From: an uncultured Enterobacteriaceae bacterium
Lineage (GTDB): Bacteria > Myxococcota_A > UBA9042
Assembly (NCBI GenBank): GCA_964356325.1
Contig: CAYHHL010000006.1
Coordinates: 6,536-70,535, forward strand
Direction of reading: 5' to 3'
Length of the DNA stretch: 64,000 nucleotides
Shown here: positions 32,445 through 56,091 of the stretch, piece after piece
How the letters are laid out: each line of letters opens with the position of its first letter
How positions within the stretch are numbered: position 1 is the first letter of the stretch
Translations under genes and position numbers: made by a program
The notes under the pieces: model-generated
What the model saw: only the letters and a program-made list of their open reading frames with translations
Told to the model about the DNA's origin: nothing
Databases searched by the model: none

Positions 32445-32570
32445 AGCTTTGACCACGACCCGGTGTGGTATGGGCTACGCAGATGGTGTAGGTTGGCAGC
32501 ACACTGCGGAACGGCCGTTTCGCAGCGCGTGCCGGGGCCTGCTCATGTGCGGCCAGACGGGAGGTATGCG

Positions 32571-34302: not shown

Positions 34303-35234
34303 CGCTGACTGCGGTGCTGCGCTGCGTCGCGCTGATCACCGTGACATGGGCATGCCGGTCGCCCGAGCCCACCAAGCCGTTGCCCGCGCCTGCGACACAA
34401 GCCCTGGAGATGGCTCGTGATCAGTGGTTCTTTGCCGCGCAAACCCCTGAACCTGTGCTGCTGGCGCTCATCCTCCAACGCACGCGCGACCGCGAGGCGA
34501 CCGCTACCACCCTGGAAGCCAAGGCGTTCCTGGTGGCGCGCGATCGCCTGCAGTCGCTGTTCTGGGAACGGGTGGAACTCGATCGCTGGCCCGGCGAGGA
34601 CCTGGCGACGGTCTTGACCGCGTGGCAGAAGCAGCGCAAGGGACCGGGGTTGCGGCTTGCGTTTGCCACCGAACCTGCCGGGCTGACCCTGACCGTGCGC
34701 CAGCCGGCTGGCGGCTTCACCCTGACCGCCACGGACTTGCAACCTATCGGTACGACCAACGATCCGCACGGCGAGAGCCAGCTTCGCGCCGGCACCGGTC
34801 AACTCGAGGTCAACGGCGTGAAGTGGCAGGGCCAGGTCCTCGCCGAGCACCTGGAGCCGGGCAGCCGGGCGTGGCCGAGCTTTGGCCGATTCGAGATGTG
34901 GCTCGCGGCCCCGACCGAGGGCGGCCTCGTGCTCGGTCGTTGCGATCTGCGCGCGCCGCCGCCCTGTGGCGAGGCGGTGGTGCTGTCGCCGGGCCAGCCA
35001 CCGCTCCGTCAGGGTTTCGCGGTCCAACCGTTCGATGCGCAACGCGACGTGACGACGGGATTTTTGCTGCCAAGGCGCTGGCGGCTGGAACCGATGGCCG
35101 GTGGCGAAGTCGTCTGGCGCGACGGGCAGACGGGGCGCGGTCGGGCACCGGGCGGGTCGCAGGCTGTTTACGATATCGGCGTCGCGAGCGGTCCAGGCGC
35201 GCTGGCGCTGGTCTTTCACTTGCAGGATCAATGA
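34299..35234 (+). CDS. Secreted protein or lipoprotein, hypothetical
   Basis: MTLTAVLRCVALITVTWACRSPEPT is a signal peptide. It overlaps the previous gene by ATGA. Confidence 0.5.
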   Translation: MTLTAVLRCVALITVTWACRSPEPTKPLPAPATQALEMARDQWFFAAQTPEPVLLALILQRTRDREATATTLEAKAFLVARDRLQSLFWERVELDRWPGEDLATVLTAWQKQRKGPGLRLAFATEPAGLTLTVRQPAGGFTLTATDLQPIGTTNDPHGESQLRAGTGQLEVNGVKWQGQVLAEHLEPGSRAWPSFGRFEMWLAAPTEGGLVLGRCDLRAPPPCGEAVVLSPGQPPLRQGFAVQPFDAQRDVTTGFLLPRRWRLEPMAGGEVVWRDGQTGRGRAPGGSQAVYDIGVASGPGALALVFHLQDQ

Positions 35235-36100
35235 GGTTCCGCGACAGGTAGATACGGTGCCGGAGTCGCCGTCGGTTCGCGCCACGTCGGTCGCTCGCTG
35301 AAGTAGAATCCCAAGCCGCGCGGGCGGCCGAGCGACAATACGTAGGCTACCAACGCCCAGCGATCCGCCTCGTCGGGCAGCGATTGGTCAAAGGCTGGCA
35401 TAGGCGCGCCGTCCAGGCCGGTCATGAAGGTGCGGTAGACGTCGATCGGGCCGTTGCCGCCCTTGTAGACGCCGTAAGTGAAGTCGAACACGTGGCTGAC
35501 GCTGCCATCGCTGTTGCGCGCCGTCGCCGCGGCCTTGCCATCGCCTCGGCCCTCGCTGCCATGGCACTCGCCGCAGCCCATCTTGACGTACAGCTTGGCG
35601 CCGCGCGCGATCAGGTCCGGCGTCGCGGCGACTGGGCTGATGTCTGCGGGCAGGACTACGTCTTCAGGCTGACGCGGCTCGGCGGCAAAGCGCGGCGACA
35701 GGGTTTCGAGGTAAAGTACAAGCGATGTCAGCTGATTGGGCGTGAGCTGATCGCGCCAACCGGGCATCGCGCTGCCGGGCAGGCCGAGCGCCAGCGTGCG
35801 TTCTAGGTCAGCGCGCGTCGGCAAGGTGCCGCTGGCGGTCGAGCGGAACCGGTACTCGCCGCGGGTCAAGTCGCGCGGTGGCGGCATCAAGCCCTCGCTG
35901 GCAGCACCCATGCCGTCGCCGCGCGCGCCGTGGCAGCCGGTGCAAGTCGCCAGGAACAGGCGGCGGCCCTCGGCGAGATCCGGCGGCGTGTCGGGACCGA
36001 CCGGATCGATGCGCGCCACGCCGCCAGCGCCGCACGCGACGGTCAGTGCGGTGGCCAGGAGCGCGAGCCCGAAGCGCCAGCCGTGGCTACAAAAAGCCAT
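35228..36100 (-). CDS. Dihaem c-type cytochrome lipoprotein
   Basis: MAFCSHGWRFGLALLATALTVACGAG is a signal peptide with a lipobox. CTGCHG and CGECHG are the haem motifs. The ATG is at 36098-36100. The track ORF is over-extended by 64 aa. Confidence 0.75.
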   Translation of the reverse strand: MAFCSHGWRFGLALLATALTVACGAGGVARIDPVGPDTPPDLAEGRRLFLATCTGCHGARGDGMGAASEGLMPPPRDLTRGEYRFRSTASGTLPTRADLERTLALGLPGSAMPGWRDQLTPNQLTSLVLYLETLSPRFAAEPRQPEDVVLPADISPVAATPDLIARGAKLYVKMGCGECHGSEGRGDGKAAATARNSDGSVSHVFDFTYGVYKGGNGPIDVYRTFMTGLDGAPMPAFDQSLPDEADRWALVAYVLSLGRPRGLGFYFSERPTWREPTATPAPYLPVAEPH

Positions 36101-37187
36101 GAATTTGCAGCAAGATCTCATTGGCATTGCCGTTGACCCGTTGGGGAATGTCGCGGTTGATGCGGTAGACTGCGCGCAGTTCGCTCCACTGCACCGGAAA
36201 CCATCCGAGGCCGAGAACGAACCGATCGCGCTCGTTTTCCTTGATCTCCAGCGACGGATCGAAGGACTCGAACCGGCCGCGCAGGTGCACACCCTTGTAC
36301 GCCTCGAAGTCGGCCTCCGTGAACAGCGCGACCTGGTCGTAGTCGTTCGGCGGCCCCATGCCGCGGATCCAATCCAGCGAGCCGAGCATCACCAGCCGAC
36401 CCAGGCGCAGTCCGCCATGCACGCCAGAAGTCAGCGTCTTGAAGGGAAAATCCTGAGCCGAAGTATCGTTGAAGGCCAGCGACGCCGACAGCCGGCCCCA
36501 CGGCGCGACGACGCCCACTTGCGCAGTCAACTGCTTGGCGAGGTTGGTATCGGGCCCGCCCAGACTGCCGTTGCTCACCGCCACCGAGGCCATGAACGGG
36601 TGCGGCGCGATGCCGACCTCCACGCCGAGATCTTGATTCGCATAGGTAAAACCTGTCTGTTGGCGGATGAACGCGGTGTCGTCCTGAACGCGCAGTCCGT
36701 ACGGTAGCAGGAAGTGACCAGCCTTGACGTAGCCACCCAGCGGCAGGCCTTGCAGCAGGACGAACGCCTCGCGATTGGCCGCGCCCTCCGGAGCCACCGT
36801 TTCGTCGACGTAGAAGCTCAGGCGCTGCGGCACGATTTCGGCGCGCACGTAGAGGTTAGCCTCGCTCACCTCGAACGAATTGGACGCCTTGGCCTGGTAG
36901 CGTTTGCCGTCCAGGCTGGTATGCGCCGCCAGCACGCTGCGTTGGTCCAGGCGCAGGTTGGCGCCCAGCGTCACCGATTCGCCGAGGCGCGGATCGAAGA
37001 CGCCGGGGGCGCGAAAGGTAGGCAGGTGGCTCTGGGCCCAGGCGACTCCGAAGGGCGTGCGCATGCCGCCGCCCGTGCGGTTGACGTGGCAGGCGCTGCA
37101 GGCAAGTCCCTCGCGCACGGCAAAAGCCGGTTCAGCGCGCAGGCTTGGCGCGGCGCTCAGGCCGTAGACCAGCAGGGTGGCGACGAC
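36087..37187 (-). CDS. Secreted beta-rich protein with a single N-terminal CxxCH (possible porin-like haem protein)
   Basis: ...VTAARVGFAVVATLLVYGLSAAPSLRAEPAFAVREGLACSACHVNRTGGG is followed by ~330 aa of alternating, aromatic-rich beta-type sequence. The start is uncertain. The track ORF begins in repeat-encoded SRSRSR. Confidence 0.45.
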   Translation of the reverse strand, partial: VVATLLVYGLSAAPSLRAEPAFAVREGLACSACHVNRTGGGMRTPFGVAWAQSHLPTFRAPGVFDPRLGESVTLGANLRLDQRSVLAAHTSLDGKRYQAKASNSFEVSEANLYVRAEIVPQRLSFYVDETVAPEGAANREAFVLLQGLPLGGYVKAGHFLLPYGLRVQDDTAFIRQQTGFTYANQDLGVEVGIAPHPFMASVAVSNGSLGGPDTNLAKQLTAQVGVVAPWGRLSASLAFNDTSAQDFPFKTLTSGVHGGLRLGRLVMLGSLDWIRGMGPPNDYDQVALFTEADFEAYKGVHLRGRFESFDPSLEIKENERDRFVLGLGWFPVQWSELRAVYRINRDIPQRVNGNANEILLQIHGFL

Positions 37188-37210
37188 CGCGAATCCGACG
37201 CGCGCTGCGG

Positions 37211-37720
37211 TCACTTTGCCCCCTCGTCTGCGCTGGCGTCGGCTCCGGCTCCGGCTCCGGCTCCGGGCAGCAAAGTCGCGCCCGCGTCGGCGGCATCGGC
37301 GTGCCAGTCCTTGCTCGCGCCCTCGGCGATCCATTTGCGCAGGGCACCGATCTGCGCATTGGTCAGGAACGGCGGCCCGTTGCGAGGCATGCGCGCGCCG
37401 ACACGACGCGGGTCCATGGCCGCGATCTTGACGATGAGGTAGCTGTCCTCGGGCCGACCGGGCGCCACACGCTGCATCGACGGCACCTCGGCCGCGGCCA
37501 CACCGACCAGATTCTGCAGTGCCACCGCATTGTCCAGCGACAGACCTTTGGGCGATGCACCGCCATGGTGGCACGACTGCGCGCACATCGGCTCCAGGAT
37601 CTGGGCCTGGATTTCCGGCCATGTGCGCGGCGCGACTCCGCCCGACTCCGGCGGCGCCGGCACGCCCTCGCCTGAACCGACACAGGCCGCGCACAGCCAC
37701 GTCAGCAGGAGCACTTGCAT
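37211..37720 (-). CDS. PSCyt1-like ('planctomycete cytochrome c' domain) haem lipoprotein
   Basis: MQVLLLTWLCAACVGSG has a lipobox. CAQSCHHGGASPKGLSLD ... VAPGRPEDSYLIVKIAAMDPRRVGARMPRNGPPFLTNAQIGALRKWIAEGA matches the PSCyt1 pattern. The C-terminal GAGAGAGADASADEGAK tail is encoded by the GCCGGA/GGCTCC repeat. Confidence 0.65.
   Translation of the reverse strand: MQVLLLTWLCAACVGSGEGVPAPPESGGVAPRTWPEIQAQILEPMCAQSCHHGGASPKGLSLDNAVALQNLVGVAAAEVPSMQRVAPGRPEDSYLIVKIAAMDPRRVGARMPRNGPPFLTNAQIGALRKWIAEGASKDWHADAADAGATLLPGAGAGAGADASADEGAK
37241..37267. repeat. Second short (GGCTCC)4.5 hexanucleotide run, reverse complement of the 18005 microsatellite unit
   Basis: Seen directly in the sequence, inside the 3' end of the PSCyt1 gene. 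Confidence 0.8.
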
Positions 37721-37781: not shown

Positions 37782-38003
37782 ATGCACAGATTCCGCCTGG
37801 CAGCGCTCGCCGCGATCCTCAGCGTGGCGACCTCGCTGGGTGGTTGCGCGGCGGTCCAACCGTGGCAGCGCGGCCGTCTCAGCCAACCGGCGATGCAACT
37901 CAGCCCACGCCTGGGCGCGGAATTCCAGTCGCACCTGCGCCCCGTGCGCGAGGGCGCCATCGGCGGCGAGGGCGGGGCCGGCGGCGGCTGCGGCTGCAAC
38001 TGA
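37782..38003 (+). CDS. DUF4266-family small lipoprotein
   Basis: MHRFRLAALAAILSVATSLGGCAAVQPWQRGRLSQPAMQLSPRLGAEFQSHLRPVREGAIGGEGGAGGGCGCN. It has a lipobox, and the characteristic GGGCGCN C-terminus recalled for this family. Confidence 0.65.
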   Translation: MHRFRLAALAAILSVATSLGGCAAVQPWQRGRLSQPAMQLSPRLGAEFQSHLRPVREGAIGGEGGAGGGCGCN

Positions 38004-38023: not shown

Positions 38024-39148
38024 TTACAAGTCCACGGAGACGGCGGCCTGTAGCACGGTCGCGATCGTGTCGGCCATGGGCACGAAGCGGTCCCCGTCCA
38101 CGGTGCGGAAGTCATCGTAACGCGTCCAGATCAGCATGCCCTGCGCCAGCAATTCGACGACACGCCACTTCCAGCGCAAGTTGAGGTCAACCGCATTGGA
38201 CCATTGGCCGGTCAGGCGCCTATCGCGGGTGATGTAGGCGCGGTCCACAGTGTACATCGAGCGGTAGAAGCTGGCTCGCGACTGCCAGTACAGCCGATTG
38301 GCGAGTTCGATTTCCAAGCCGTGGCCGACATCGAGGGTGGCGCCGAGTTCACCGGTGTTGCTGCGAATCGCCCAAGTATCGAGATAGCCGCGGTAAGTCG
38401 CGCGCAAGAACAGCGACCGACCGACGGCTTGGCGGCCTTCGAGCGTCAAACCGTGGCGGGTGCGGCTGTCCGGGTGGCGCTCGGCGACCCACTGCGCCTG
38501 ACTGTGCAGCCAAAGCGCGGGGTCACGCGGCACCAGCGGCACCAGGCGGTAGGGGCTCGATTGGAACCCGTCGACCAGCGCGAGCGTATATGCCACTGAA
38601 ACTATAGTGGAACGCGTGACGATTTGGCTGACCGTGGCGTCGAGACGGTGGCTCAGGCGGTCATGCCACAGCGACTCGGGCTGGCGCAGGCTGCCCAGGC
38701 GGTCCATGCCCAGACCATAGCTGAGCGCCAGTGTTAGGTTGCGCGCGAACAGCTCGGTCTGGCCGCCGGCCACCAAGGCGTGGCTGTGCGTGTCGTTCTC
38801 GGTGCTGTAGGTGTAGCCGGTATGGCCACGCCAGCCGTCGCGGTCGTAGTTGAGTTGGAAGCCCGCCTCCTTGCGCACCTCTTGGAAGCTCGGGCTGGCG
38901 CCGGAAACCATGTCGACCGATGCCGCGGTGATGAAGTCGGTGCGCACCGTGGCCTGGACGGAAGTGGATCCGAGGATCTGCTGGCGCGCCTCGAGCCACG
39001 GGCTGATGACGCTCAAGCCATCGTTATTGCTGTACACCGCCGTCCCGGTCGCTCCGTGCGTGGCCAGGCCTTCACCGTGTGCGCTGCCCGACAACGCCGA
39101 CCAGACGGCACAGCCTGCGAAAGCGGCCCGCCCGCCCCACCGGCTCAC
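38024..39148 (-). CDS. DUF3570-like outer-membrane beta-barrel candidate
   Basis: A GTG at 39146-39148 overlaps the upstream stop (GTGA). A signal-like AAFAGCAVWSALSGSAHG is followed by aromatic-rich, alternating beta sequence. The family assignment comes from pattern recall only. Confidence 0.5.
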   Translation of the reverse strand: MSRWGGRAAFAGCAVWSALSGSAHGEGLATHGATGTAVYSNNDGLSVISPWLEARQQILGSTSVQATVRTDFITAASVDMVSGASPSFQEVRKEAGFQLNYDRDGWRGHTGYTYSTENDTHSHALVAGGQTELFARNLTLALSYGLGMDRLGSLRQPESLWHDRLSHRLDATVSQIVTRSTIVSVAYTLALVDGFQSSPYRLVPLVPRDPALWLHSQAQWVAERHPDSRTRHGLTLEGRQAVGRSLFLRATYRGYLDTWAIRSNTGELGATLDVGHGLEIELANRLYWQSRASFYRSMYTVDRAYITRDRRLTGQWSNAVDLNLRWKWRVVELLAQGMLIWTRYDDFRTVDGDRFVPMADTIATVLQAAVSVDL

Positions 39149-39693
39149 TTCAGTCCCCCGGAGATCCAACCTTCCAGGGCCTTGTACGCCGGTTGGCTGC
39201 GGTCCGGGAACACGATCAAGCCATCGGCGTGGACGATGCCGCCCTGCTTGGGATCCAGGCATTTGAGCAGCAAAGCACTGTTCGCGGCCGACGTCTCGTT
39301 ACGCAAGCGCATGCACAAAGCTTCGTAGTTCCAAGACAACTCAGCATCGGTCAGGTGCTTCTCGTCGAGCGGCGTGTCCGAAAAGGCCGGAGGCGCGCGC
39401 AGGTAATCGACGGCGTACAGCGTCAGGCTGCTGCCGAGCTTGCCGTGGCAGGCGGCAAAGGCGCAACTGTGGCCGATCACAGGCTGGATCTTGGTCACGA
39501 ACACGCTGAAGTCGGCAACGGGCAATGGCGTGTACGGATTATCGACTGACGGGCAGGCAGTGGCAGTCACGGCGAGCCCGGTCAAGATCACGAAAAGCGC
39601 AGCTTGGCGACCGACTTGCGGCCACGGCGCGTCCCGCCGCTCAGTTGTCTGGGCGCATGGGGGACGCTGGACTTTCGGGTCGGTGGCACGCAT
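39145..39693 (-). CDS. Monohaem c-type lipoprotein with a PSCyt1-like C-terminus
   Basis: ALFVILTGLAVTATACPSVD has a lipobox. CAFAACHG is the haem motif. ...AYKALEGWISGGLK is the C-terminus. The true start is probably an internal GTG near 39615. Confidence 0.55.
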   Translation of the reverse strand: MRATDPKVQRPPCAQTTERRDAPWPQVGRQAALFVILTGLAVTATACPSVDNPYTPLPVADFSVFVTKIQPVIGHSCAFAACHGKLGSSLTLYAVDYLRAPPAFSDTPLDEKHLTDAELSWNYEALCMRLRNETSAANSALLLKCLDPKQGGIVHADGLIVFPDRSQPAYKALEGWISGGLK

Positions 39694-39740
39694 GGGCAGC
39701 CGTGGCGGCGTGGTGGTGGCGCCGCGTTGGTGAGGGTGGC

Positions 39741-42146
39741 ATGCTTCGGCGCGCGGCAGCGCCCTTTGCGGGGCTTCTCATTGCTGGTTTCGCGGGGCTT
39801 CTCATGGCTCGTGTCCCCGTCCCCTCCGGTTGCCGGCACCCTGGCGTCGACGTCGTGCGATGCTACGAGAAGCGGTGCGGCCGTGCAATCGCGCGCCTGG
39901 CGCTGCTGACCCTGCTCGCCGTGGCGGCTCTTGCCTGCGAGACGACGCCGACCGCCGCGGCGCGGGGCCCGACTGAAGGCTGCAACACTTCAAAATGCCA
40001 CGCAGAAATCGAGCAGATCCACTACGGTGGCCCGGCTCTGAGCTGCGTCGACTGTCACGGCGGCGATCCGCGGGCGACGACCAAGGCCGGTGCGCACGTC
40101 ACGGTGGACACGTCGTTGAACCCCTCGACGCCGGGCAAGCATTTCCTCGACGATCCCTCGCTGGCCGAACTCGCGCAGGCTTCGACCGAGGTGCTGCAGT
40201 TCCTCAACCCAGCGGATTATCGAGTTGTTTTAAGGACATGTGGCAGCACCACGCTGGCGGGCGGCGGTTGTCACTCGATCATCACGAACAACAGCCTGCT
40301 GCTCAACCGGGCGACGCTGGCAGGGCAATTGGCAGGCGGTGGCTTCATCGCCGGAACTCAGGGCAAGCAGCCGCACTATGGCATCGTGCCCGTGCAGGAT
40401 CGCTTCGTGCCCGCACAGCCGCCGCCGGGTACCGTCACCCACTTGGACCCGCTTCCGGCCGACCCACCCGCCACGGCGACCTCGGTGACTGCCAAGGCAT
40501 TCTACCCTGTCTACGAGCAGTTGTGCGCCGATTGCCACCTCGGGCGTGAGGGTTCCAAGGTGCCAGGGCGCTACTACTCGGCGGGCTGCAACGGCTGCCA
40601 CATGACCACCGCGGACGAGTCGCGCACGGCGACGGCCGACCCGACGCAGAACCGCGACGAGGCCGGTCACCCGCTCAAGCACCGATTCACCAACCTCATT
40701 CCCGACAGCCAGTGCGCGCATTGCCACATTTCGCACCTGGGCCGATCGCTGCTGGCACGCGGTGTGCGCGAGCGCTCCGAGCCCGAGGGCGACACGCTGA
40801 TGGGCGGCAAGAACACGGGTGCCGCCGATCCGCCCAACGCCGTGCCGTGGGGCAAGGAGAACTACGTCAAGTCCAAGGGCATGTTGTGGCAATACGGCAA
40901 GCCGTGGCCGTACTTCCTGGAGGATGAGGACGGCAGCAACGCCACGGACGAGACGCCACCCGACATCCACACGCAAATGGGCTTGGCCTGCATCGATTGC
41001 CACAACATGCGGGAAGCCCACGGTTCAGGCCGGGCCCAGGTGCGCATGGACCAGGAACTCGACGTGCGTTGCCAAAGTTGCCACGGCCGGCCGGGAGAGA
41101 AAGCCAAGCTGATGTCCGACTCGGGCATCACTTTTGACCAGGCGGGGACGGGCAAGGGCTCGGACGGCGCCAACCCGCAGACGGTCAAGGTCATCGGCGA
41201 TGGGAGCGTGCAGCAGCGCGACAAGCTGACCGGTGGACTGCATCCGGTCACGCAGATCACGCAACGTACTGATCCGAATGCCAAGCTGTACAATCCGCGC
41301 ACGCGCATGGGCTGCCAACTCCACGCGGGGACGGCGGCGGCGCGTCAGGCTCTCAAGGCCGAGTTCGCCGCGCTGGCTGCCCAGGATCCGGCGGCGGCGC
41401 AGAAGCAGTTTCCGGGCGTGCCGCCGGGCTTCCAGTTCGACGCCGTGGCTGTGGAGTCCGACGGCCGCACCGAATGCTTTGCCTGCCACAATGCCTGGAC
41501 GGTCAACTGCTACGGTTGCCACATGGTGCGCGACGACCGCGAGACCTACATCAGCCGGGTAAGCGGCGAGAAGCGGGTGGGCAAGGTCAAGTCCTTTGGT
41601 CTCAGCGTGATGGCCGACGCTCTCGCGCTGGGCTTCAACAGCCGAGGCCGTATCACGCCGCTGGTCGGGACCTCGATCTTCTTCACCCACATCGACGCTG
41701 CCGGCAACAAGGTCATCGATGCCGCGCCGTTGACCACGGGCGAAGGCCTGAGCGGCGACGGTAACGTTCACAACCCTGTGCACCATCACACGATTCAGAA
41801 GCAGCCTCGCGATTGCACCGGCTGCCATCCAGCGGCGGATGGCGCCGACAACGTGACGGCGGTACTGCGCGCGATCGGCTTGGGCACCGGCCAGTTCACG
41901 TTCGCCGATGGTGCTGGGCGGACCCACTGGCTCGACAGGCTGATCGTCGGTGACTACGATGGCGACGGCAAGCCGGACGACCCCATCGCGCTCGGGTTGC
42001 CCTCGTCGCTGGCGAGCGTGAAGCGCGTGGTCGGCACGACGCACATGCAGCTACCAGGCATGTCCGGAGGCCAACAGCCGGGACCGCTCGACGTCGAAAC
42101 AGTCAATCGCATCCTGAAGAACAAAGTGTTGCCGCAGCGGCCCTGA
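39741..42146 (+). CDS. Large multihaem c-type cytochrome lipoprotein (~11 CxxCH/CxnCH)
   Basis: There are two candidate signal peptides. One is MLRRAAAPFAGLLIAGFAGLLMA. The other is RLALLTLLAVAALACETTP, which carries a lipobox. The haem motifs are CNTSKCH, CVDCH, C(x9)CH, CADCH, CNGCH, CAHCH, CIDCH, CQSCH, CFACH, CYGCH and CTGCH. The start is uncertain (39741 to 39870). Confidence 0.75.
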   Translation: MLRRAAAPFAGLLIAGFAGLLMARVPVPSGCRHPGVDVVRCYEKRCGRAIARLALLTLLAVAALACETTPTAAARGPTEGCNTSKCHAEIEQIHYGGPALSCVDCHGGDPRATTKAGAHVTVDTSLNPSTPGKHFLDDPSLAELAQASTEVLQFLNPADYRVVLRTCGSTTLAGGGCHSIITNNSLLLNRATLAGQLAGGGFIAGTQGKQPHYGIVPVQDRFVPAQPPPGTVTHLDPLPADPPATATSVTAKAFYPVYEQLCADCHLGREGSKVPGRYYSAGCNGCHMTTADESRTATADPTQNRDEAGHPLKHRFTNLIPDSQCAHCHISHLGRSLLARGVRERSEPEGDTLMGGKNTGAADPPNAVPWGKENYVKSKGMLWQYGKPWPYFLEDEDGSNATDETPPDIHTQMGLACIDCHNMREAHGSGRAQVRMDQELDVRCQSCHGRPGEKAKLMSDSGITFDQAGTGKGSDGANPQTVKVIGDGSVQQRDKLTGGLHPVTQITQRTDPNAKLYNPRTRMGCQLHAGTAAARQALKAEFAALAAQDPAAAQKQFPGVPPGFQFDAVAVESDGRTECFACHNAWTVNCYGCHMVRDDRETYISRVSGEKRVGKVKSFGLSVMADALALGFNSRGRITPLVGTSIFFTHIDAAGNKVIDAAPLTTGEGLSGDGNVHNPVHHHTIQKQPRDCTGCHPAADGADNVTAVLRAIGLGTGQFTFADGAGRTHWLDRLIVGDYDGDGKPDDPIALGLPSSLASVKRVVGTTHMQLPGMSGGQQPGPLDVETVNRILKNKVLPQRP

Positions 42147-42164
42147 CGGCCGGACGAGGTCCAC

Positions 42165-42995
42165 ATGAAACGCTTGCTGCAATGCCTGGCGCTGACCTGG
42201 GGTCTGGCGGGCTGCGAGTCCAATCCGGAGCCGAGCGAGCCGGCGATCCAGGTCGAGACGCTGCCGGAGATGGCCGGCGCACCTACCAGCGTGGTCGATG
42301 GCCGTCTGACTTGCCTGGGCAAGGCCCCGGCGGCGGCCACTGCGGGCGCGCTGGAATTGACTGGCTACGTACGCACGCTGGCCGATCCCGAAGCGAAACT
42401 ACCGCCACCCGCGGCCAAGGTCGGCCTGTTCACCGCTGACGGCACGGAACTGGCCAGCGGTTTTGCCGACGCGGCCAAGGCCGGCCGTGTCTCGATCTCG
42501 GTGCCGGTCAAGGCTCAAGGCTTCGAAGGCTACGCGCTCGTGCAGCAACAAGGCTTCCTGGACTGGCGCTTCCAGACCAGCCGGCCGGTGACGACTACCG
42601 ACCTCACCGGCTGGGCTTGGCTGACCACACAGGGCGAGGTCGACACGCGAGCCAAGGCGCTGGGTTTCACGCTCAAGGCCAGCGCCGGCATCCTGGTCGG
42701 CGCCGTCCATGATTGTGACAGCTTCGGCGCGGCCAACGCCGTGGTCGTCGTCGGCGATGCGGGCGGCAACCCCGTGTATTACGTCGAAGGCTTCGATCTA
42801 GTGGCGGTACGTCCCTACACCAGCACCAGTGGCCGCTTCGTCGCTGCCAACCTCGCGCCGGGCACCGTGCAGGTCAAGGCGTTCGGGCGTACCAAAGTGG
42901 GCGGCCCGCTGGAACTCTTGTCCTCGGCGCGGGTCGTGATCGAGGCAGGCCGCATCACCGCCGTCGATCTCGCGCCGCGCACAGGCATCAAGTGA
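42165..42995 (+). CDS. Lipoprotein, hypothetical
   Basis: MKRLLQCLALTWGLAGCESNPEP has a lipobox. It lies 18 nt after the cytochrome stop. Confidence 0.55.
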   Translation: MKRLLQCLALTWGLAGCESNPEPSEPAIQVETLPEMAGAPTSVVDGRLTCLGKAPAAATAGALELTGYVRTLADPEAKLPPPAAKVGLFTADGTELASGFADAAKAGRVSISVPVKAQGFEGYALVQQQGFLDWRFQTSRPVTTTDLTGWAWLTTQGEVDTRAKALGFTLKASAGILVGAVHDCDSFGAANAVVVVGDAGGNPVYYVEGFDLVAVRPYTSTSGRFVAANLAPGTVQVKAFGRTKVGGPLELLSSARVVIEAGRITAVDLAPRTGIK

Positions 42996-44275
42996 CGCCT
43001 GGCTCAGATGCGAGGCGCTGGCACGCCGCGCCTCCGTTGGCCGCCGGTCTGTCTGCGCTGGCCATCTGCGCTGCGGGCTTCGACATCACACCTGACATGC
43101 CCGCTACGAACCTGTTCCCTTTGCTGTATTATCCGCTGCTGGTGCTGAGTCTCGGCACCGCCTGGTGGGTCTGGCGCCATCCGCGCTGCATCGGTTTTGC
43201 CACGGTGTTGGCGTTTGCCCTGGCGTTCCGTCTGCTTGCTGCCGCGGAACCGCCCTCGCTGTCGAGCGATGTCTACCGCTACGCCTGGGACGGCCACGTG
43301 CAGCGCGCCGGCATCAGCCCTTACGCCCACGCCCCTGGCGATGCCGCGTTGGCGCCGTTGCGCGATGCCGCGATCTACCCGCACATCAACCGCAAACAGG
43401 CGCACACGGTCTATCCGCCGGGCGCGCAGGTGCTGTTCCTGGCGCTGCCCTTTGGCCTGGACGCGGTCCGCCTGGCGATGATCGCCTTGGATCTGCTGAC
43501 GATCGTGCTGCTCGGCCGGCTCTTGCGCGATCTGGGCCAGGATCCGGCGCGCGCGCTGCTTTACGCCTGGTCGCCGCTCGCGATCTACGAAATCGGCAAC
43601 GGCGGCCATCTCGAGGCGGCGGTGCTGCCGTTGCTGCTGGGCGCGGTGCTGGCGTGGCGTGCAGGGCGCTGGCGGACGGTCGGGCTGCTGCTCGGCGGCG
43701 CGGCCTCGCTCAAACTGTATCCGCTGTTGCTCGGCAGTGTTCTGGCGCCGCCACGCTGGTTGCGCGTGCTCGGCCCGGCCGCGGTATTGCTGGGTGTCGT
43801 GTACTTCGCCTATGGCCTCGCGGCGGGCGTGGGCGTGCTGGGCTTCCTGCCGCAGTACCTCGGATCGGCTGAGGATCACAACAACGGACTGCGCGCGCTG
43901 TTCGAGTGGACCCTCGGCCCGCTGCCGGCGCAGTACCGGCGCCCGTTGGCGTTTGCCCTGTGCCTGGTCGCGATGGTGACCCTGATGCGCAAGGCGGCGC
44001 GCGCTGATGTGGCCATCGAACACAAGATTCGCGACCTTGCGGGCATCTACTTGGTGACGGTACCCACGGCGCTGCACCCCTGGTACGCGCTCTGGCTCGT
44101 GCCGTGGCTGTGCATCGCGCCGCACGCCGGGTGGCTGTGGCTGGTGGCGACCGTGCCGCTCTCGTACCTCAAATACGCCAGCCCCGGCGGGGTGATGCCG
44201 GCGTGGGTGATGCCGCTGGAGTTCGTGCCGACCGGAGTGCTGCTGGCGTGGCCGATGTGGCGGCGGCCGGCATGA
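42992..44275 (+). CDS. DUF2029/GT87-like polytopic membrane glycosyltransferase (polyprenol-phosphate-sugar dependent, GT-C-like)
   Basis: It has about 10 TM segments. SSDVYRYAWDGHV is the DUF2029-type periplasmic loop motif. The start overlaps the previous stop (ATGA). Confidence 0.65.
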   Translation: MTPGSDARRWHAAPPLAAGLSALAICAAGFDITPDMPATNLFPLLYYPLLVLSLGTAWWVWRHPRCIGFATVLAFALAFRLLAAAEPPSLSSDVYRYAWDGHVQRAGISPYAHAPGDAALAPLRDAAIYPHINRKQAHTVYPPGAQVLFLALPFGLDAVRLAMIALDLLTIVLLGRLLRDLGQDPARALLYAWSPLAIYEIGNGGHLEAAVLPLLLGAVLAWRAGRWRTVGLLLGGAASLKLYPLLLGSVLAPPRWLRVLGPAAVLLGVVYFAYGLAAGVGVLGFLPQYLGSAEDHNNGLRALFEWTLGPLPAQYRRPLAFALCLVAMVTLMRKAARADVAIEHKIRDLAGIYLVTVPTALHPWYALWLVPWLCIAPHAGWLWLVATVPLSYLKYASPGGVMPAWVMPLEFVPTGVLLAWPMWRRPA

Positions 44276-45723
44276 GCCTGTGGTCCGCCGTAGCCTTGCT
44301 GCCTTACCTCGGACTGCTAGCCGTGATGCTGGCTTACAGCGCCCACAGCCTGGTGCTGGTGATCGTCCACGCCCGCTCGCCGGCCCGCCGCCGAGAGTCG
44401 TGGCCATCGCCAGGAACCGAGCCGCACGTCGTTGTGCAATTGCCAGTGTACAATGAGGAAAATGTCGTCGCGCGGCTCCTGGATGCCGTTGCCGCTTTGG
44501 ATTGGCCACCCGACCGGCTGACCATCCAACTGCTCGACGACTCGACCGATGCCACCGCCGCGCTGGCCGAGCCGTGCGTCGCGCGGATGCAAGAGGCGGG
44601 TCTGCGCGTCCAACACCTGCGGCGGGCCCAGCGGCACGGCTTCAAGGCCGGCGCGCTGGCGCATGGCTTGGCGCAAACCGACGCCGCGTTCTTCGCCATC
44701 TTTGACGCCGACTTCGTACCGCCGCCCGACTTCTTGCGCCGCGCGCTGCCGCACTTCGCCGACCCGAGCATCGCCGCGGTCCAGGGCCGCTGGACGCATC
44801 TGAACCGCGACTGGTCGAGCCTGACGCGCGCTCAGGCCCTGGCCATCGACGGTCATTTCGCCATCGAGCAGGAGGCCCGCTTTCGCGCCGGCTGGTTCCT
44901 CAACTTCAACGGCAGCGCGGGGGTATGGCGGCGCGCGGCGATCGAGGCGGCCGGCGGCTGGTCGGCGGACACCTTGACCGAGGATCTGGACCTTTCCTAC
45001 CGCGCGCAGCTGTGCGGTTGGCGCCTCGCGTTCGATCGCGATCTCACATGCCCCGCCGAATTACCGAGTACTCTGGCTGCCTTCAAGGCTCAGCAACGGC
45101 GCTGGGCAACCGGGTCGATGCAGACGGCGCGCAAGCTCCTGCCGGCGATCTGGCAGAGCCGAACGAGCCTGGCCGCGCGACTGGCGGCGACGCTGCACCT
45201 GACGCACTACGCCGTGCACCCATTGCTGGCGACGACCGCGCTGCTGTCGATTCCGTGCGTTCTGCTGCCAGGGCTGTTGGCGCCCCCGGGGCCTCTGTGG
45301 GGTGTGCTGCTGCCGTTCGGCCTGGCGATGGTCGGGCCCACAGCGCTGTATCTGTACGCGCGCCGGGTGCTCGGGTTGCCGATCGCGCCGGCGCTGCGCG
45401 ATCTCGGCACGCTGACCCTGGTGGGCGTGGGCATCGCCGTCAGCAATGGTCGCGCGGTGTTGCGCGCCTTCCAGCGGCGGCAGATCCCATTCGAGCGAAC
45501 GCCCAAGCTGGGAGAGCCAGGCGACTGCATCCGCCAGCGCTATCCGGTGACCGCGGACGGCCTCGCGCGCATGGAGCTGGCCCTGGCGCTGTATTGCCTG
45601 TGCGCCGCGCTGGGACTGCTGTGGACTGGGGTGTATGCGGTGGCGCCCTTCCTGCTTCTGGACGCCGCCGGGTTCGGCTATGTAGCGGTGCGCGGCGCTG
45701 CAAGTGACCAGGAGCGTTGGTGA
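44272..45723 (+). CDS. Family-2 membrane glycosyltransferase (processive, cellulose-synthase-like fold)
   Basis: VVQLPVYNEENVV ... LLDDSTD ... FDADFVPPPDF ... QQRRWATG is a QxxRW motif. C-terminal TM helices follow. ATGA overlap with the previous gene. Confidence 0.8.
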   Translation: MSLWSAVALLPYLGLLAVMLAYSAHSLVLVIVHARSPARRRESWPSPGTEPHVVVQLPVYNEENVVARLLDAVAALDWPPDRLTIQLLDDSTDATAALAEPCVARMQEAGLRVQHLRRAQRHGFKAGALAHGLAQTDAAFFAIFDADFVPPPDFLRRALPHFADPSIAAVQGRWTHLNRDWSSLTRAQALAIDGHFAIEQEARFRAGWFLNFNGSAGVWRRAAIEAAGGWSADTLTEDLDLSYRAQLCGWRLAFDRDLTCPAELPSTLAAFKAQQRRWATGSMQTARKLLPAIWQSRTSLAARLAATLHLTHYAVHPLLATTALLSIPCVLLPGLLAPPGPLWGVLLPFGLAMVGPTALYLYARRVLGLPIAPALRDLGTLTLVGVGIAVSNGRAVLRAFQRRQIPFERTPKLGEPGDCIRQRYPVTADGLARMELALALYCLCAALGLLWTGVYAVAPFLLLDAAGFGYVAVRGAASDQERW

Positions 45724-46412
45724 AGATCGTCGCCATCCTGCCCGCGCTGAACGAGGCCGCCACCGTCGGAGCGGTGGTTCGTGGCCTCCGAGACTTCGTC
45801 GCGGCAGTGGTCGTGGTCGACGGCGGCAGTAGCGACGACACCTGCGCCCAAGCCCGCGCCGCCGGAGCCGAAGTCGTCGTCGAACCACGCCCCGGCTACG
45901 GCCGCGCCTGCCGCGCTGGCGTCGCCTTCGCCACGGACTCGAGTGCCGAGGTCGTCGCCTTTCTCGACGCCTCCAGCGCCACCTATCCGGAGGACCTGCG
46001 CGCCGTGCTGGCACCGATCCTGAACGGCGGGTTCGACTTCGTGCTCGGCTCACGTGTCAGCGGTCAGGCCGAACCGGGCTCGCTGCGCCCCTTGCAGCGC
46101 GCTGGCAACCGACTTGCCACCCAGCTCATCGCCTGGCTGCACGGCCACGCCTACAGCGATCTCGGCTCGATGCGCGCCATCCGCCTGGGTTGTCTCGCCA
46201 CCCTCGAAATGCAAGAATCCGCGCACGGCTGGCCCGCCGAGATGCAGGTCAAGGCGGCGCGGCGCGGCCTGCGCATCTGCGAGGTGCCCATCCGCTACCG
46301 CCGTCGCCGCGCGGGTCGGTCCAAGGTGTCCGGCACGGCCATCGGCTCGCTGCGGGCGGGTTTCGCCATCTTGCGCGTCGTGCTCACGGGCGCGCGAACA
46401 CGCGGCAACTAG
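45717..46412 (+). CDS. Family-2 glycosyltransferase, polyprenol-phosphate sugar synthase-like (DPM1/GtrB-type)
   Basis: VKIVAILPALNEAATVGAVV ... VVVVDGGSSDDT ... the length and motifs match DPM1/ArnC-type GT2 enzymes. Confidence 0.7.
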   Translation: MVKIVAILPALNEAATVGAVVRGLRDFVAAVVVVDGGSSDDTCAQARAAGAEVVVEPRPGYGRACRAGVAFATDSSAEVVAFLDASSATYPEDLRAVLAPILNGGFDFVLGSRVSGQAEPGSLRPLQRAGNRLATQLIAWLHGHAYSDLGSMRAIRLGCLATLEMQESAHGWPAEMQVKAARRGLRICEVPIRYRRRRAGRSKVSGTAIGSLRAGFAILRVVLTGARTRGN

Positions 46413-46486
46413 CGCAACAACCGAGCCCGCCGAAAGGGGCCGGCAGACTGCCAGGTGCGCGCCGCGTTCAAGCTGTGGGTTGTCTC

Positions 46487-48121
46487 ATGCACGCCAAGGC
46501 CGCGGTCGCCATCATCAGCAAAGTGCCGCGTCCCGGGCGATCCAAGACGCGTCTGGCCCGGACGCTCGGCTTGCCGGCGGCGCTGGACCTGCACCGCGCA
46601 TTCCTGGCCGATGAACTGCGTCAGTTGCACGCCCCGGATTGCTGGCGGCTCGTGTTCATCCACGATGCCATTGAAACTGCACAAGAAGTAGAGGAACTCG
46701 CCAGCCTCGTCGCCGGTCGCGCCGACTACGTGGTGCCGGGCAAGCGCGATCTCGCTCACGAACTTCTCGAAGCGTTTCGCCTGCTGCTTGCCGAACACGA
46801 GCGCGTGGTCATCGTCAGCGGCGATGTGCCGCACATCGATCCGGAACTGGTGGCGCGCGCGTTGGCGGCGCTCGATACCGCCGATCTGGTGCTGGGTCCC
46901 GGACCGGATGGCGGCTACTACCTCGTCGGGCTCAAGGTGCCGCACGACGTCTTCACTACGATTCCGATGGGTACCGCTGCGGTCGAGAAGGCGACCGTGG
47001 CCGCGGCGCAGCGACTGGGCCTGCAGGTGGCGCACATCGAGGCGATGGTCGATCTGGACGAGGCCCAGGATCTGCTTGCGCTCGAGGCGATGGCACCTGG
47101 GCTTGCCCAAGCGACGCGCGCGGTGGTGGCGCAACTCGGGCGTACCGATCTGAGCGCGACCCTGCCAACCGAGCTCCAGGTCGAGGTCACCAGCCGTTGC
47201 AACCTGCGCTGTTCAGCCTGCCTGATCACCCACGAAACGCTGGCGCCGGATGCGGATCTCGACATGGCGGATTGGCATCGCATCGTCGATGGCCTGCCGA
47301 ACCTTGGCCGCGTGGCCTTCCAGCTCAACGGTGAACCGCTTCTGTGTCGCGACGTATTCGCCATGATCGCGGACGCAGTGGCTCGCGGTGCCACTACGGT
47401 GATGAATACCAACGGCCTGCTTCTCGACGAACAGCGCCGTGTCGGAGTGCTGAGCAGCGGCCTGCATGAACTGCGCGTGTCGCTGGACGGCGCCAGGCCA
47501 CAAACCGTGCTTGAGATGGCAGGCGCGGATATCCTGGGCGCCGTGACGCGCCGCGTGCGCGAAATGGTCCAGGCTCGCGGCTCGGCGACCCTGCCTCGCA
47601 TCAGCCTGTGGATGGTGGCGACGCGGCTCAATATCGAGGAACTGCCAGATCTCGTGCGCCTGGCAGCTGAGCTGGGGGTCGAGGAAGTCTACGCCCAACG
47701 CCTGGTGCTGACCGGCCACGGGGTGGCGCAACGAGCGTACTCACTGCACGGCCGGAGCGGACCGCTGCTGCGCGACGTGGTGGCGCGCGCCGAGGCCATT
47801 GCGGCCGAAACCGGAGTGGCCTTGCGGGCATCGGGCAGGCAGCCGATCCTGGAGAGCTTCGCCGCCTCGGACGACCCGCATCCGCAGCGGGGTTGCTGGC
47901 GGCCCTGGCGCAGCGCTGTGGTGACTGCATCGCTGAAGGTGCTGCCGTGTTGCATCGCCAGCTTCACGCAGTCCTACGCCGAGTTGGAACTGGGCGATCT
48001 GCGAACGCAAACGTGGTCGGACATTTGGAACGGCGCCGCCTATCGACGGTTGCGCAACGGCCTCCTGGACGGCCCGCCGCAGCGCGGATGCCGCGACTGT
48101 GGCAAGGAGTGGAGCCTGTGA
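46487..48121 (+). CDS. Fusion protein: DUF2064 (TIGR04282-type glycosyltransferase-like nucleotidyltransferase fold) + radical SAM with a C-terminal SPASM domain
   Basis: The N-terminus is AAVAIISKVPRPGRSKTRLARTLG ... GDVPHIDPE ... GPGPDGGYYLVGL. The C-terminus has VEVTSRCNLRCSACL (CxxxCxxC), then CWRPWRSAVVTASLKVLPCCIAS ... GCRDCG (SPASM cysteines). Confidence 0.75.
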   Translation: MHAKAAVAIISKVPRPGRSKTRLARTLGLPAALDLHRAFLADELRQLHAPDCWRLVFIHDAIETAQEVEELASLVAGRADYVVPGKRDLAHELLEAFRLLLAEHERVVIVSGDVPHIDPELVARALAALDTADLVLGPGPDGGYYLVGLKVPHDVFTTIPMGTAAVEKATVAAAQRLGLQVAHIEAMVDLDEAQDLLALEAMAPGLAQATRAVVAQLGRTDLSATLPTELQVEVTSRCNLRCSACLITHETLAPDADLDMADWHRIVDGLPNLGRVAFQLNGEPLLCRDVFAMIADAVARGATTVMNTNGLLLDEQRRVGVLSSGLHELRVSLDGARPQTVLEMAGADILGAVTRRVREMVQARGSATLPRISLWMVATRLNIEELPDLVRLAAELGVEEVYAQRLVLTGHGVAQRAYSLHGRSGPLLRDVVARAEAIAAETGVALRASGRQPILESFAASDDPHPQRGCWRPWRSAVVTASLKVLPCCIASFTQSYAELELGDLRTQTWSDIWNGAAYRRLRNGLLDGPPQRGCRDCGKEWSL

Positions 48122-48135
48122 CTGCACCATCCGGC

Positions 48136-48906
48136 ATGTTCGGCAGGCCGCGCCCGGCACCGCATGGGCGCATGGCGCTCCTGATGGCGTCGACCTGCCT
48201 GATCGCAGCCTGCGTCGGCAGTGGCGAACTGCCGGCGACCCTGAGCGGCCAGATCGTCGGCGGGGACGATCGGCCGCTAGGTCCCGGACTGGTCCTGATC
48301 GAGCGCGGCAAAGTTCACGCCGGCGCCTATGAGGGCGGGACGCTCATCGACGCGCAAGGCAAGTTCAGCCTGCCTCTGCCAGGCGGCGGCACGTGGGGCA
48401 TCCACTTGTTCCACAGCGACTATTCCTACGTGCCCATCGAACTGACGATCGACCCGCACCAGCAAGTGGTGCTCACCAACATGATGGCCTCCTGGGGGGT
48501 GTGGCTGGACTTGACCGGGCAGCCGACCTGGCCCGATCAGCCCGACGACACCCGGCTGTTGCGCATGCCCGTCGATGACAACAAGGCCGACAACCCGGTG
48601 CTGTCCGACATCGAGATGACCTACCCGAGCAAGACGCTGATGCAGATCACGGCGCAGGCGTTCGATCCGGACGGCGACCTGTCGCGCATGGTCCTGGTGC
48701 ACGACACGGCCACGGGCGCCGGCTACGCTCTCAACCCGCCATCGCCGCCCGATGCCAAGGGTAACTACCCCAATGGTAAGTATTCGCTGAAGATATTCAT
48801 CGATCCCCGCCATGTGCCTGGGAAGTCGCTGTGGTACTTCGTCGTGTCCGACAACATGTGCAACAACACGCCGATCATGCCGGTCGCGATGCCTCCGCTG
48901 CCGTAA
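48136..48906 (+). CDS. Lipoprotein, hypothetical
   Basis: MFGRPRPAPHGRMALLMASTCLIAACVGSG has a lipobox. The mature part is beta-rich. It lies 14 nt after the radical SAM gene. Confidence 0.5.
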   Translation: MFGRPRPAPHGRMALLMASTCLIAACVGSGELPATLSGQIVGGDDRPLGPGLVLIERGKVHAGAYEGGTLIDAQGKFSLPLPGGGTWGIHLFHSDYSYVPIELTIDPHQQVVLTNMMASWGVWLDLTGQPTWPDQPDDTRLLRMPVDDNKADNPVLSDIEMTYPSKTLMQITAQAFDPDGDLSRMVLVHDTATGAGYALNPPSPPDAKGNYPNGKYSLKIFIDPRHVPGKSLWYFVVSDNMCNNTPIMPVAMPPLP

Positions 48907-56070: not shown

Positions 56071-56091
56071 ACGATTGCGCAAGGGGGCCCC

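Follow-up and report, generated by a model that had tools for sequence, protein, structure and literature searches.

The seven genes at 39741-48906

The DNA analysed here (the window) is a stretch of 64,000 nucleotides (nt) from an uncultured Enterobacteriaceae bacterium of the GTDB lineage Myxococcota_A, UBA9042 (assembly GCA_964356325.1, contig CAYHHL010000006.1, positions 6,536 to 70,535, forward strand), and its central feature is a run of seven plus-strand genes at 39741-48906 in which a multihaem cytochrome precedes a set of glycosyltransferases (GTs) and an enzyme of the radical S-adenosylmethionine (SAM) type. All seven open reading frames (ORFs) were found where an earlier, sequence-only reading of this DNA had placed them, and their third-position GC content (GC3, 0.79-0.85) is of the coding type in a window of high GC (0.65-0.72). 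In order, they encode a multihaem c-type cytochrome lipoprotein (39741..42146, 801 amino acids (aa) as called), lipoprotein 1 (42165..42995, 276 aa), a polytopic enzyme predicted to be a GT-C of GT87/MptA-B-like type (42992..44275, 427 aa), a membrane-embedded synthase of the processive GT2 type (44272..45723, 483 aa), a small soluble GT2 resembling polyprenyl-phosphate-sugar synthases such as AglJ, Dol-P-Man synthase (DPMS) and ArnC (45717..46412, 231 aa), a fusion of a DUF2064 domain (46487..47149) with a radical SAM domain and a twitch-like domain of five cysteines (47150..48121), and lipoprotein 2 (48136..48906, 256 aa).

The genes had been described as packed with gaps of 18 nt or less and overlaps, and this is the case at five junctions: 18 nt separate the cytochrome from lipoprotein 1, lipoprotein 1 and the GT-C overlap by 4 nt, the GT-C and the processive GT2 overlap by 4 nt, the two GT2 genes overlap by 7 nt (TTG at 45717) or 4 nt (GTG at 45720), and 14 nt lie between the radical SAM domain and the ATG of lipoprotein 2 at 48136. 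It does not apply between the small GT2 and the DUF2064-radical SAM fusion, where the gap measures 74 nt to the ATG at 46487 or 62 nt to a GTG. Two smaller details also need correction, as the overlap at 44272 is ATGA but that at 42992 is GTGA, and the TTG lies at 45717 but its GTG alternative at 45720. Scans of 39000-49600 for consensus promoters (3 sites against 0.8 expected) and terminator-like sites (3 against 4.9 expected) returned nothing meaningfully placed, and both are uninformative on operon structure.

The cytochrome contains nine CxxCH motifs, one CX4CH (residues 81-87) and one C-X9-CH (C167-X9-C177-H178; window 40239-40274, CGSTTLAGGGCH), the last being a candidate long-spacer haem site that is invariant in nine orthologues. 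This makes 11 candidate sites, and all of their Cys and His residues are invariant in the nine aligned orthologues, as is the lipobox cysteine (Cys66) downstream of a signal-peptide-like stretch, in agreement with the lipoprotein of about 11 haems that had been read from the sequence. VHHHT and DxDGDG motifs are conserved as well. Against PDB sequences only weak local matches to NrfB and NrfA were obtained, and the best NCBIfam match is ExtM (NF040943). As this match reaches 142.7 bits, spread over four stretches, and the cut-off lies at 800, membership of the ExtM type was ruled out.

The GT-C protein is best placed through its relatives. PF09594 (GT87) is matched by 37 of 38 aligned homologues (37-73% identical), and a database search returned 430 relatives; among the 120 listed, most carry PF09594 and/or PF26314 (MptA_B_family), and the public protein record identical to the window protein bears PF26314. 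Compared with solved structures, the family profile is closest to glycosylphosphatidylinositol mannosyltransferase I (GPI-MT-I, E 7e-7) and PimE (E 2e-3). The AlphaFold (AF2) model of the window protein (pLDDT 93.8), searched against the PDB with Foldseek, ranks PimE first (9dm5, E 9e-5, prob 1.00, TM 0.55-0.60), followed by GPI-MT-I, ALG3, PIG-U and ALG6; the protein O-mannosyltransferase Pmt4 is a far poorer match (E 0.6). Two aspartates, D93 and D100, are invariant in the 38 sequences and mark the motif LSSDVYRYxWDG after the third predicted helix; they are candidates for the acidic catalytic base that GT-C enzymes carry in their first extracytoplasmic loop. Because homologues, family profile and structure model agree, we place the protein as a predicted GT87-like GT-C enzyme of the group that uses polyprenyl- or dolichyl-phosphate sugars, its donor use likewise being a prediction. 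An NCBIfam scan of the window protein alone gave no match, and the DUF2029/GT87 identity proposed earlier is carried by the homologues and the model rather than by a Pfam match of its own.

For the small GT2, a family profile built from 16 orthologues of all clades was searched against the PDB. It finds Dol-P-Man synthase first (5mlz, E 1.5e-18, positions 1-207 of 222), then ArnC (about 1e-15) and GtrB (3e-6), and because of this ranking the protein is supported as a polyprenyl-phosphate-sugar synthase type of predicted activity; the full-length match sustains the earlier label of a DPM1-like GT2. As a single sequence, its best match among solved structures is GpgS over the N-terminal half only, and its best NCBIfam model is AglJ (124 bits against a cut-off of 325), with Dol-P-hexose transferases also below their cut-offs. 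The 483-aa GT2 shows, in its translation, the motifs LLDDSTD, FDADF (DxD), LTEDLD (TED) and QQRRW. Its hydrophobic segments lie at the two ends of the protein, one at the N-terminus and about four at the C-terminus, and it lacks a PilZ domain. BcsA is its closest solved relative (E 8e-21), and these motifs, hydrophobic flanks and the BcsA match together uphold its reading as a processive synthase type, BcsA-like as judged by similarity. It belongs to no curated equivalog, scoring 115 bits on CelA (cut-off 699) and 90 on PgaC (cut-off 422).

The DUF2064 half of the fusion (46487-48121) passes PF09837 (73.6 bits, cut-off 25.8), falls under the cut-off of TIGR04282 (glyco_like_cofC; 128.3 against 134) and matches PDB 3cgx, a 'putative nucleotide-diphospho-sugar transferase' (E 2e-16); the orthologue in the Acidobacteriaceae locus L084 passes TIGR04282 (165.7 against 134). 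The closest solved relatives of the radical SAM half are BtrN (E 1e-11), PqqE, the nucleoside-sugar decarboxylase BlsE and MoaA, and BtrN, BlsE and MoaA act on small carbohydrate or nucleoside substrates. The similarity to BtrN is restricted to the N-terminal radical SAM core, with about 105 residues aligned. The CX3CX2C motif (C17/C21/C24 of the domain) is conserved in 54 radical SAM homologues from six groups, and only five C-terminal cysteines are conserved at ≥98% in these homologues, C249/C267/C268/C314/C317 (C-x17-CC-x45-C-x2-C). PF13186 (SPASM) matches the C-terminal region with 47 bits, and the NCBIfam twitch family NF033640 covers the same region with 46 bits here and 74.5 in L084. 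A full seven-cysteine SPASM domain with two auxiliary [4Fe-4S] clusters was ruled out by the five conserved cysteines, and the pattern fits a putative single-cluster auxiliary domain of the twitch type, BtrN-like, with a C-x17-C...C-x2-C spacing that we take to be that of the BtrN auxiliary domain. No RRE (recognition element) or PqqD-like domain was found in the radical SAM half. The sequence-only reading had named a DUF2064-radical SAM/SPASM enzyme: both domains are indeed in one ORF, but the 'SPASM' part is a five-cysteine, twitch-like domain. Sorting the radical SAM half into a TIGRFAM/SPASM subfamily did not succeed either, the seven-cysteine motif being absent and the best NCBIfam scores (TIGR04311 'putative metalloenzyme maturase' with 110 bits, the tungsten-enzyme maturase TIGR04317 and PqqE) lying far below cut-offs of 380-400. 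Neither the radical SAM enzyme nor the GT-C nor the small GT2 falls under a curated NCBIfam model.

The fusion is confined to Myxococcota-type loci (11 genome loci without a stop codon, the marine locus L002 and the window), and the two parts are separate genes elsewhere. This Rosetta-stone pattern suggests that DUF2064 and the radical SAM enzyme may act in consecutive steps. In a related locus, L005 (GCA_054014975.1, 12769-14195), DUF2064 stands alone as a 224-aa protein, and no radical SAM gene lies between it and lipoprotein 2.

Neither lipoprotein looks enzymatic. Lipoprotein 1 has the lipobox LAGC and a weak CarboxypepD_reg-like beta-sandwich. Lipoprotein 2 has the lipobox IAAC, a mature N-terminus CVGSG and a family of 74 relatives (all at least 48% identical) with no Pfam match; its model (pLDDT 90.4) has two beta-sandwich domains of the transthyretin/CarboxypepD_reg kind, and a fold search with this model gave generic beta-sandwich matches only and no enzymatic fold.

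A cassette in at least six groups and its link to cytochromes

One genome per species was scanned with the GT-C protein, which gave 310 stretches, of which the best 80 were kept; partner genes were located by tblastn with the window proteins. Among these best 80 of 310, GT-C relatives occur in Myxococcota-type metagenome-assembled genomes (MAGs), Methylomirabilota/NC10, Rokubacteria, Acidobacteriaceae, Chloroflexota and Nitrospinae, the closest (68-73% identity) being in MAGs titled uncultured Myxococcales. Partners were counted within 8 kb of the GT-C gene in the 42 well-flanked loci, which have ≥5 kb on both sides of it. The small GT2 is present in 39/42, the radical SAM enzyme in 37/42 and DUF2064 in 34/42 of these loci, the processive GT2 in 21/42 and the cytochrome of the window locus in 9/42. 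Thus, a conserved cassette is shared by six or more phyla: its parts are a GT87-like enzyme, a twitch radical SAM enzyme, a small GT2 and DUF2064, which a methyltransferase and a NUDIX hydrolase often accompany. Full-text literature searches for the combination of DUF2064 or DUF2029 with radical SAM genes returned no description of it, and we report the cassette as new. The arrangement is far beyond chance: dozens of independent loci, with protein identities as low as 43-50%, repeat the gene order.

The composition of the cassette differs between groups. The processive GT2 was found in Myxococcota-type loci, NC10, Rokubacteria and one 'other' locus. Acidobacteriaceae, where the cassette was observed in MAG or draft records only, have a compact operon in the order methyltransferase-DUF2064-GT87-radical SAM-GT2. 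NC10 loci carry an extra, second radical SAM enzyme that is MftC-like, a methyltransferase and a DoxD-like membrane protein. The last of these, a four-helix protein, lies upstream of the GT-C gene in 30 loci, mainly of Methylomirabilota, Rokubacteria and Chloroflexota, and it is not in the window; a methyltransferase, a second radical SAM enzyme and a DoxD-like protein were sought near the window locus and are absent. A NUDIX hydrolase cluster is present in 13 loci, and in L007 the NUDIX domain is fused to DUF2064. The window also encodes a NUDIX hydrolase (15614-16141, +) that is 55% identical to the cassette NUDIX of the Rokubacteria locus L051 and of L002; it sits 27 kb from the cassette, beside an Fe-S flavoprotein and a GMC oxidoreductase.

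A separate scan of metagenomes with the cytochrome alignment found 17 orthologous loci (about 46-79% identity, some of them near-duplicates). Eleven of these loci extend for more than 1.5 kb past the cytochrome, and in 10/11 the GT-C gene is next after it, usually past lipoprotein 1; L101 (2200-8448) is the sole cytochrome orthologue found with lipoprotein 1 but without a GT-C cassette within 5 kb downstream. Among genomes, the cytochrome is by the GT-C in nine of the ten well-flanked Myxococcota-type loci, where all nine cytochrome cases lie; outside Myxococcota-type loci, a search of the 8 kb around the GT-C gave no orthologue of the window-locus cytochromes. Lipoprotein 1 is directly upstream of the GT-C gene in 9/10 of the same Myxococcota-type loci, and L007 and L027 lack it at this position. 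Homologues of lipoprotein 2 accompany the cassette even in Rokubacteria. The order cytochrome-lipoprotein 1-GT-C-GT2 is fixed down to about 50% identity, and the genes for a DUF7482-like protein, 172-aa and 311-aa proteins, lipoprotein 2 and DUF3570 are rearranged between loci. Three loci (L015, L016 and L020) keep the cassette and lack the window-type cytochrome and DUF3570; in these, a CX3CH protein, a cytochrome-porin fusion, a dihaem cytochrome and lipoprotein 1 are co-directional before the GT-C.

As such, the expectation that orthologous cytochromes always travel with these GTs is correct for nearly all of the loci in both scans and fails in L101. The idea of a toolkit dedicated to the cytochrome has to be given up. 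The core cassettes of Acidobacteriaceae, Methylomirabilota, Rokubacteria, Chloroflexota and Nitrospinae have no cytochrome orthologue within 8 kb, and L015, L016 and L020 keep the cassette with the cytochrome missing. The sequence-only reading had also considered that the GT genes might keep other partners elsewhere and that the cytochrome association might not be conserved; the core cassette does occur in other groups with no orthologue of these cytochromes nearby, and the linkage to the cytochrome is conserved in Myxococcota-type loci.

The predicted redox island around the cassette

The genes upstream of the cytochrome are predicted to make this setting an extracytoplasmic redox island. A divergent neighbour (39145..39693, -, 182 aa) is a lipoprotein with a conserved CX4CH motif (CAFAACH) that co-travels with the cytochrome in Myxococcota-type loci. 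A second small lipoprotein (37211..37720, -, 169 aa, mature N-terminus CVGSG) has a conserved CX3CH motif (CAQSCH; CAQ[SP]CH in the family). The haem-type motifs of both are non-canonical, and both proteins match no family and co-travel with the cytochrome island. The mature N-terminus C-V-G-[S/N/T]-G is common, in many loci, to the apparently unrelated families of this lipoprotein and of lipoprotein 2 (48136-48906, +), and it could act as a signal for sorting or for modification. Next to these lie a cytochrome-porin fusion (36087..37214, -, 375 aa), whose signal peptide and single CSACH (residue 39) are combined with a C-terminal body resembling a porin, and a dihaem class-I cytochrome c lipoprotein (35228..36100, -, 290 aa). 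The fusion has 387 homologues, all 'hypothetical', two of which carry PF13609 (Porin_4), and its C-terminus reads ...IHGFL; a fused cytochrome-porin architecture is known from the Fe(II) oxidase Cyc2. Three co-travelling proteins (32445..35234, +) of about 400 aa (faint DUF7482), 172 aa (lipobox LTSC) and 311 aa complete this side.

Between the two small lipoproteins are genes for a DUF3570 protein (38024..39148, -; PF12094 110.8 bits) with one SGAS at residue 82 and for a small secreted DUF4266 lipoprotein (37782..38003, +) with a C-terminal CXC (…GCGCN). The DUF3570 family has been shown to be flavinylated by ApbE, and the characterised protein has two [S/T]GA[S/T] motifs (eLife 2021, PMC8238504). 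The pair resembles the DUF3570/DUF4266 flavinylation-associated systems (Meheust et al. 2021, PMC8238504) in the SGAS and CXC motifs, but differs from them in that it is set among c-type cytochromes and has no ApbE, thioredoxin-like or DsbD gene among the adjoining ORFs examined; none was found among the window ORFs scanned, which are part of all its ORFs.

Downstream of the gene run, 50010-56748 (+) encodes a protein of 635 aa that has a Tll0287-like domain, a multihaem cytochrome of NrfH/NapC-type plus MtrC-like character (52427-53836), and a histidine kinase of the HAMP kind together with a response regulator of the LuxR type. These genes may provide the island with regulation and a quinol link. 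Farther away, 4497-11733 (-) and 22862-25247 (-) hold genes of the menaquinone type and others, namely an isochorismate-synthase-like gene, a 990-aa fusion of a MenC-like and an AMP-binding domain, a polyprenyl synthetase, a DAHP (3-deoxy-D-arabino-heptulosonate 7-phosphate) synthase and a split cytochrome b of a bc-type complex, a general respiratory context, and the wider window includes NuoE-like and ferredoxin genes and sensors.

A proposed glycosylation pathway and its alternatives

From the gene content, folds, family affinities, synteny and gene fusion observed above, we infer substrates, an order of steps, an acceptor and a link to electron transfer. In this proposal, the genes would form a self-contained, phylum-spanning cassette for polyprenyl-phosphate-dependent periplasmic glycosylation that installs a sugar tailored by the radical SAM enzyme, and here the cassette would be joined to an extracytoplasmic redox island; we consider the proposal to be evenly balanced between right and wrong. 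One module would comprise the GT87-like GT-C, the small DPMS/ArnC-like GT2, DUF2064 and the twitch radical SAM enzyme, with the BcsA-like processive GT2 and the two beta-sandwich lipoproteins as additions at this locus. The other would comprise the 11-haem lipoprotein, the cytochrome-porin fusion, the dihaem cytochrome c, the two small haem lipoproteins and DUF3570/DUF4266. DUF2064, with its nucleotide-sugar-transferase or CofC-like fold, and then the radical SAM enzyme would remodel a nucleotide-linked, sugar-like precursor in the cytoplasm, a stage in which the SAM methyltransferase and the NUDIX hydrolase would take part in other phyla. The small GT2 would put the product onto polyprenyl phosphate and, after flipping, the GT-C would pass the sugar to a lipid-linked or polymeric glycan on the periplasmic face. 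In the Myxococcota-type lineage the acceptor would most likely be the product of the adjacent processive GT2. The GT-C and small GT2 fit the two-step polyprenyl-phosphate-sugar route that the sequence-only reading had recognised, and the profile match to DPMS and the similarity of the GT-C model to PimE, GPI-MT-I and ALG3 speak for it. Direct glycosylation of the cytochrome, which the same reading had named as a candidate, becomes a less likely variant: because lipid-linked glycans, and not proteins, are what the GT-C's relatives of solved structure modify, and because the processive synthase is co-conserved, by analogy a glycan or glycolipid is the more likely acceptor. The likeliest reason for the two modules to stay together would be that the decorated glycan or glycolipid serves as a surface matrix or anchor for the redox proteins. 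The Geobacter Xap polysaccharide, which anchors extracellular cytochromes, is a precedent for a glycan that holds multihaem cytochromes. A stronger form of the proposal, in which the cassette glycan is an obligatory anchor or matrix, or a covalent modification, of a new electron-transfer apparatus (11-haem lipoprotein, Cyc2-like fusion and flavinylated DUF3570) and a phylum-spanning pathway builds the radical-SAM-remodelled polyprenyl-phosphate sugar, is doubtful in our judgement.

Known systems resemble the cassette in part. In three-component periplasmic glycosylation, a synthase and a GT-C work together with a flippase (Kelly et al. 2024, PMC11127046). The GtrA/GtrB/Gtr*, CsbB/GtcA/YfhO and pentofuranose systems (PMC11127046) share with the cassette a GT2-type polyprenyl-phosphate-sugar synthase in the cytoplasm and a GT-C that works outside it, where a glycan made beforehand is decorated from a lipid-linked monosaccharide. 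Unlike these, the window locus has no flippase gene and its synthase lacks membrane helices; the cassette GT-C is GT87-like, not Gtr or GT136, and the cassette has a constant radical SAM/DUF2064 pair (elsewhere with methyltransferase and NUDIX) and is joined to a processive synthase and cytochromes. The mycobacterial pathway of Ppm1 with PimE or MptA-B, which leads to phosphatidylinositol mannosides (PIM), lipomannan (LM) and lipoarabinomannan (LAM), is likewise similar in the pairing of a GT-C with a DPMS-like GT2, and PimE is the best fold match. However, the window GT-C is only 21% identical to PimE and misses the Pfam GT87 model, the cassette hosts (Myxococcota, Acidobacteriota and others, of Gram-negative type) are not known to make PIM or LAM, and radical SAM and DUF2064 partners are not known in the mycobacterial pathway. 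BtrN, a 2-deoxy-scyllo-inosamine dehydrogenase and the founding twitch-domain radical SAM enzyme, has the closest solved core and is likewise short and without an RRE; the window enzyme differs in its extra adjacent cysteine (CC) and in the DUF2064 fusion. Synthase-dependent exopolysaccharide systems of the BcsA/PgaC kind likewise rely on a processive GT2 that is embedded in the membrane and bears TED and QxxRW motifs, but BcsB, PgaB and PilZ partners are missing here and the scores are far below the cellulose and poly-N-acetylglucosamine (PNAG) cut-offs.

Several observations weigh against the proposed pathway. A Pfam scan of the window GT-C alone gave no match even at E<=10, the N-terminal half of the small GT2 also resembles the soluble GpgS, and this GT2 lacks the C-terminal membrane helices of DPMS/ArnC-type enzymes. 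No flippase gene of the GtrA, SMR or MATE type was found among the seven genes or the neighbours scanned. The orthologous locus L005 has DUF2064 without a radical SAM gene, and the radical SAM step there may be dispensable or encoded elsewhere in the genome. The acceptor cannot be identical everywhere because the Acidobacteriaceae cassettes have no processive GT2. Operon status is drawn from spacing and synteny, so that a single transcript is presumed, and the cytochrome synteny is restricted to a single lineage, where common ancestry could account for part of it. Every substrate named in the pathway is likewise a prediction.

The cassette could instead be a dedicated maturation system in which the GT-C glycosylates proteins directly, modifying the 11-haem lipoprotein and/or the beta-sandwich lipoproteins. 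This is unlikely in our view, although the cytochrome and lipoprotein 1 directly precede the GT-C in nearly all orthologous loci, lipoprotein 2 homologues go with the cassette even in Rokubacteria, and in streptococci membrane-associated proteins can reportedly be glycosylated by systems of the three-component type (PMC12041528). Five other phyla have the cassette but no orthologue of the cytochrome or lipoprotein 1 near it, the GT-C's relatives PimE, GPI-MT-I and ALG3/6 work on lipid-linked glycans and Pmt4 is the far worse match already given, and a role for the co-conserved processive GT2 would be missing. The C-V-G-[SNT]-G mature N-terminus shared by two unrelated island lipoprotein families would suit protein modification, but its variable S/N/T position offers no consistent O-glycosylation site. 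A quite improbable alternative is a neighbourhood with no functional link, where a general envelope cassette for lipopolysaccharide (LPS), exopolysaccharide (EPS) or glycolipid lies beside the cytochrome island by inheritance. The independence of the core cassette from the window-locus cytochromes in most phyla and the origin of every cytochrome-linked locus from one group of related MAGs agree with it, and the 74-nt gap leaves room for separate transcription units; the other junctions, at 18 nt or less or overlapping, speak against it. It would also have to account for an order cytochrome-lipoprotein-GT-C-GT2 that is kept down to some 50% identity amid shuffled neighbours, and for L016, which has lost this cytochrome and has other cytochrome genes co-directional before lipoprotein 1 and the GT-C gene.

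The radical SAM enzyme invites two further explanations. Maturation of a cofactor, peptide or metalloprotein, with the GTs as accessories, would agree with the best NCBIfam matches (TIGR04311 with 110 bits, TIGR04317 and PqqE) and with the MftC-like second radical SAM enzyme elsewhere; it is very unlikely, as those scores are far under their cut-offs, the enzyme has no RRE/PqqD-like domain and only five auxiliary cysteines, and compact cassettes leave no room for a precursor-peptide gene. The DUF2064 fusion and the constant pairing of GT-C and DPMS-like GT2 point instead to a small-molecule or sugar substrate. A reading as a ribosomally synthesised and post-translationally modified peptide (RiPP) system was rejected separately, there being no conserved ORF of ≥80 aa beyond shadow ORFs and no room for a precursor gene in the compact spacing. 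We regard as least probable of all, and as very improbable indeed, an organo-metalloid (arsenosugar-like) pathway coupled to a metalloid-reducing, ExtM-like cytochrome. The TIGR04282/TIGR04283/ArsS (TIGR04167) cassette does combine a DUF2064 protein, a small GT2 and a radical SAM enzyme, often with a SAM methyltransferase; the TIGR04282 family, which the Acidobacteriaceae DUF2064 passes (165.7 against 134), is named 'arsenosugar biosynthesis' by NCBI, a methyltransferase is present in many of our cassettes, and the cytochrome's best NCBIfam matches are selenite/tellurite-operon cytochromes. However, the window radical SAM enzyme is twitch/SPASM-like and not ArsS, the small GT2 is DPMS-like, and the known arsenosugar scheme offers no role for the GT-C, a constant member here. 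The best 25 of the 42 families matched by the window radical SAM enzyme do not include TIGR04167, the second radical SAM enzyme of L009 scores 30 bits against 300 on the same model, the small GT2 scores 41 against 182 on TIGR04283, methyltransferase matches to ArsM models are generic (43.6 against 510 bits), the cytochrome reaches 143 of 800 bits on ExtM, and the window locus has no methyltransferase. Membership of an arsenosugar cassette was ruled out by the TIGR04167, TIGR04283 and ArsM scores, and a literature search on arsenosugars returned ArsS/ArsL chemistry papers only.

If the proposed polyprenyl-phosphate-dependent pathway is true, a widespread cassette of four to five genes, which databases describe generically as 'glycosyltransferase / radical SAM / DUF2064', would gain a testable function, and the 'three-component' paradigm of polyprenyl phosphate and GT-C would gain a new class of donor-tailoring chemistry. 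The automatic naming of DUF2064/TIGR04282 proteins as 'arsenosugar biosynthesis' would be misleading in the context of this cassette. A genetic test would be feasible if cultured Acidobacteriaceae also carry it. In the uncultured Myxococcota, the linkage to cytochromes would offer a genetic handle on how glycans hold surface redox proteins.

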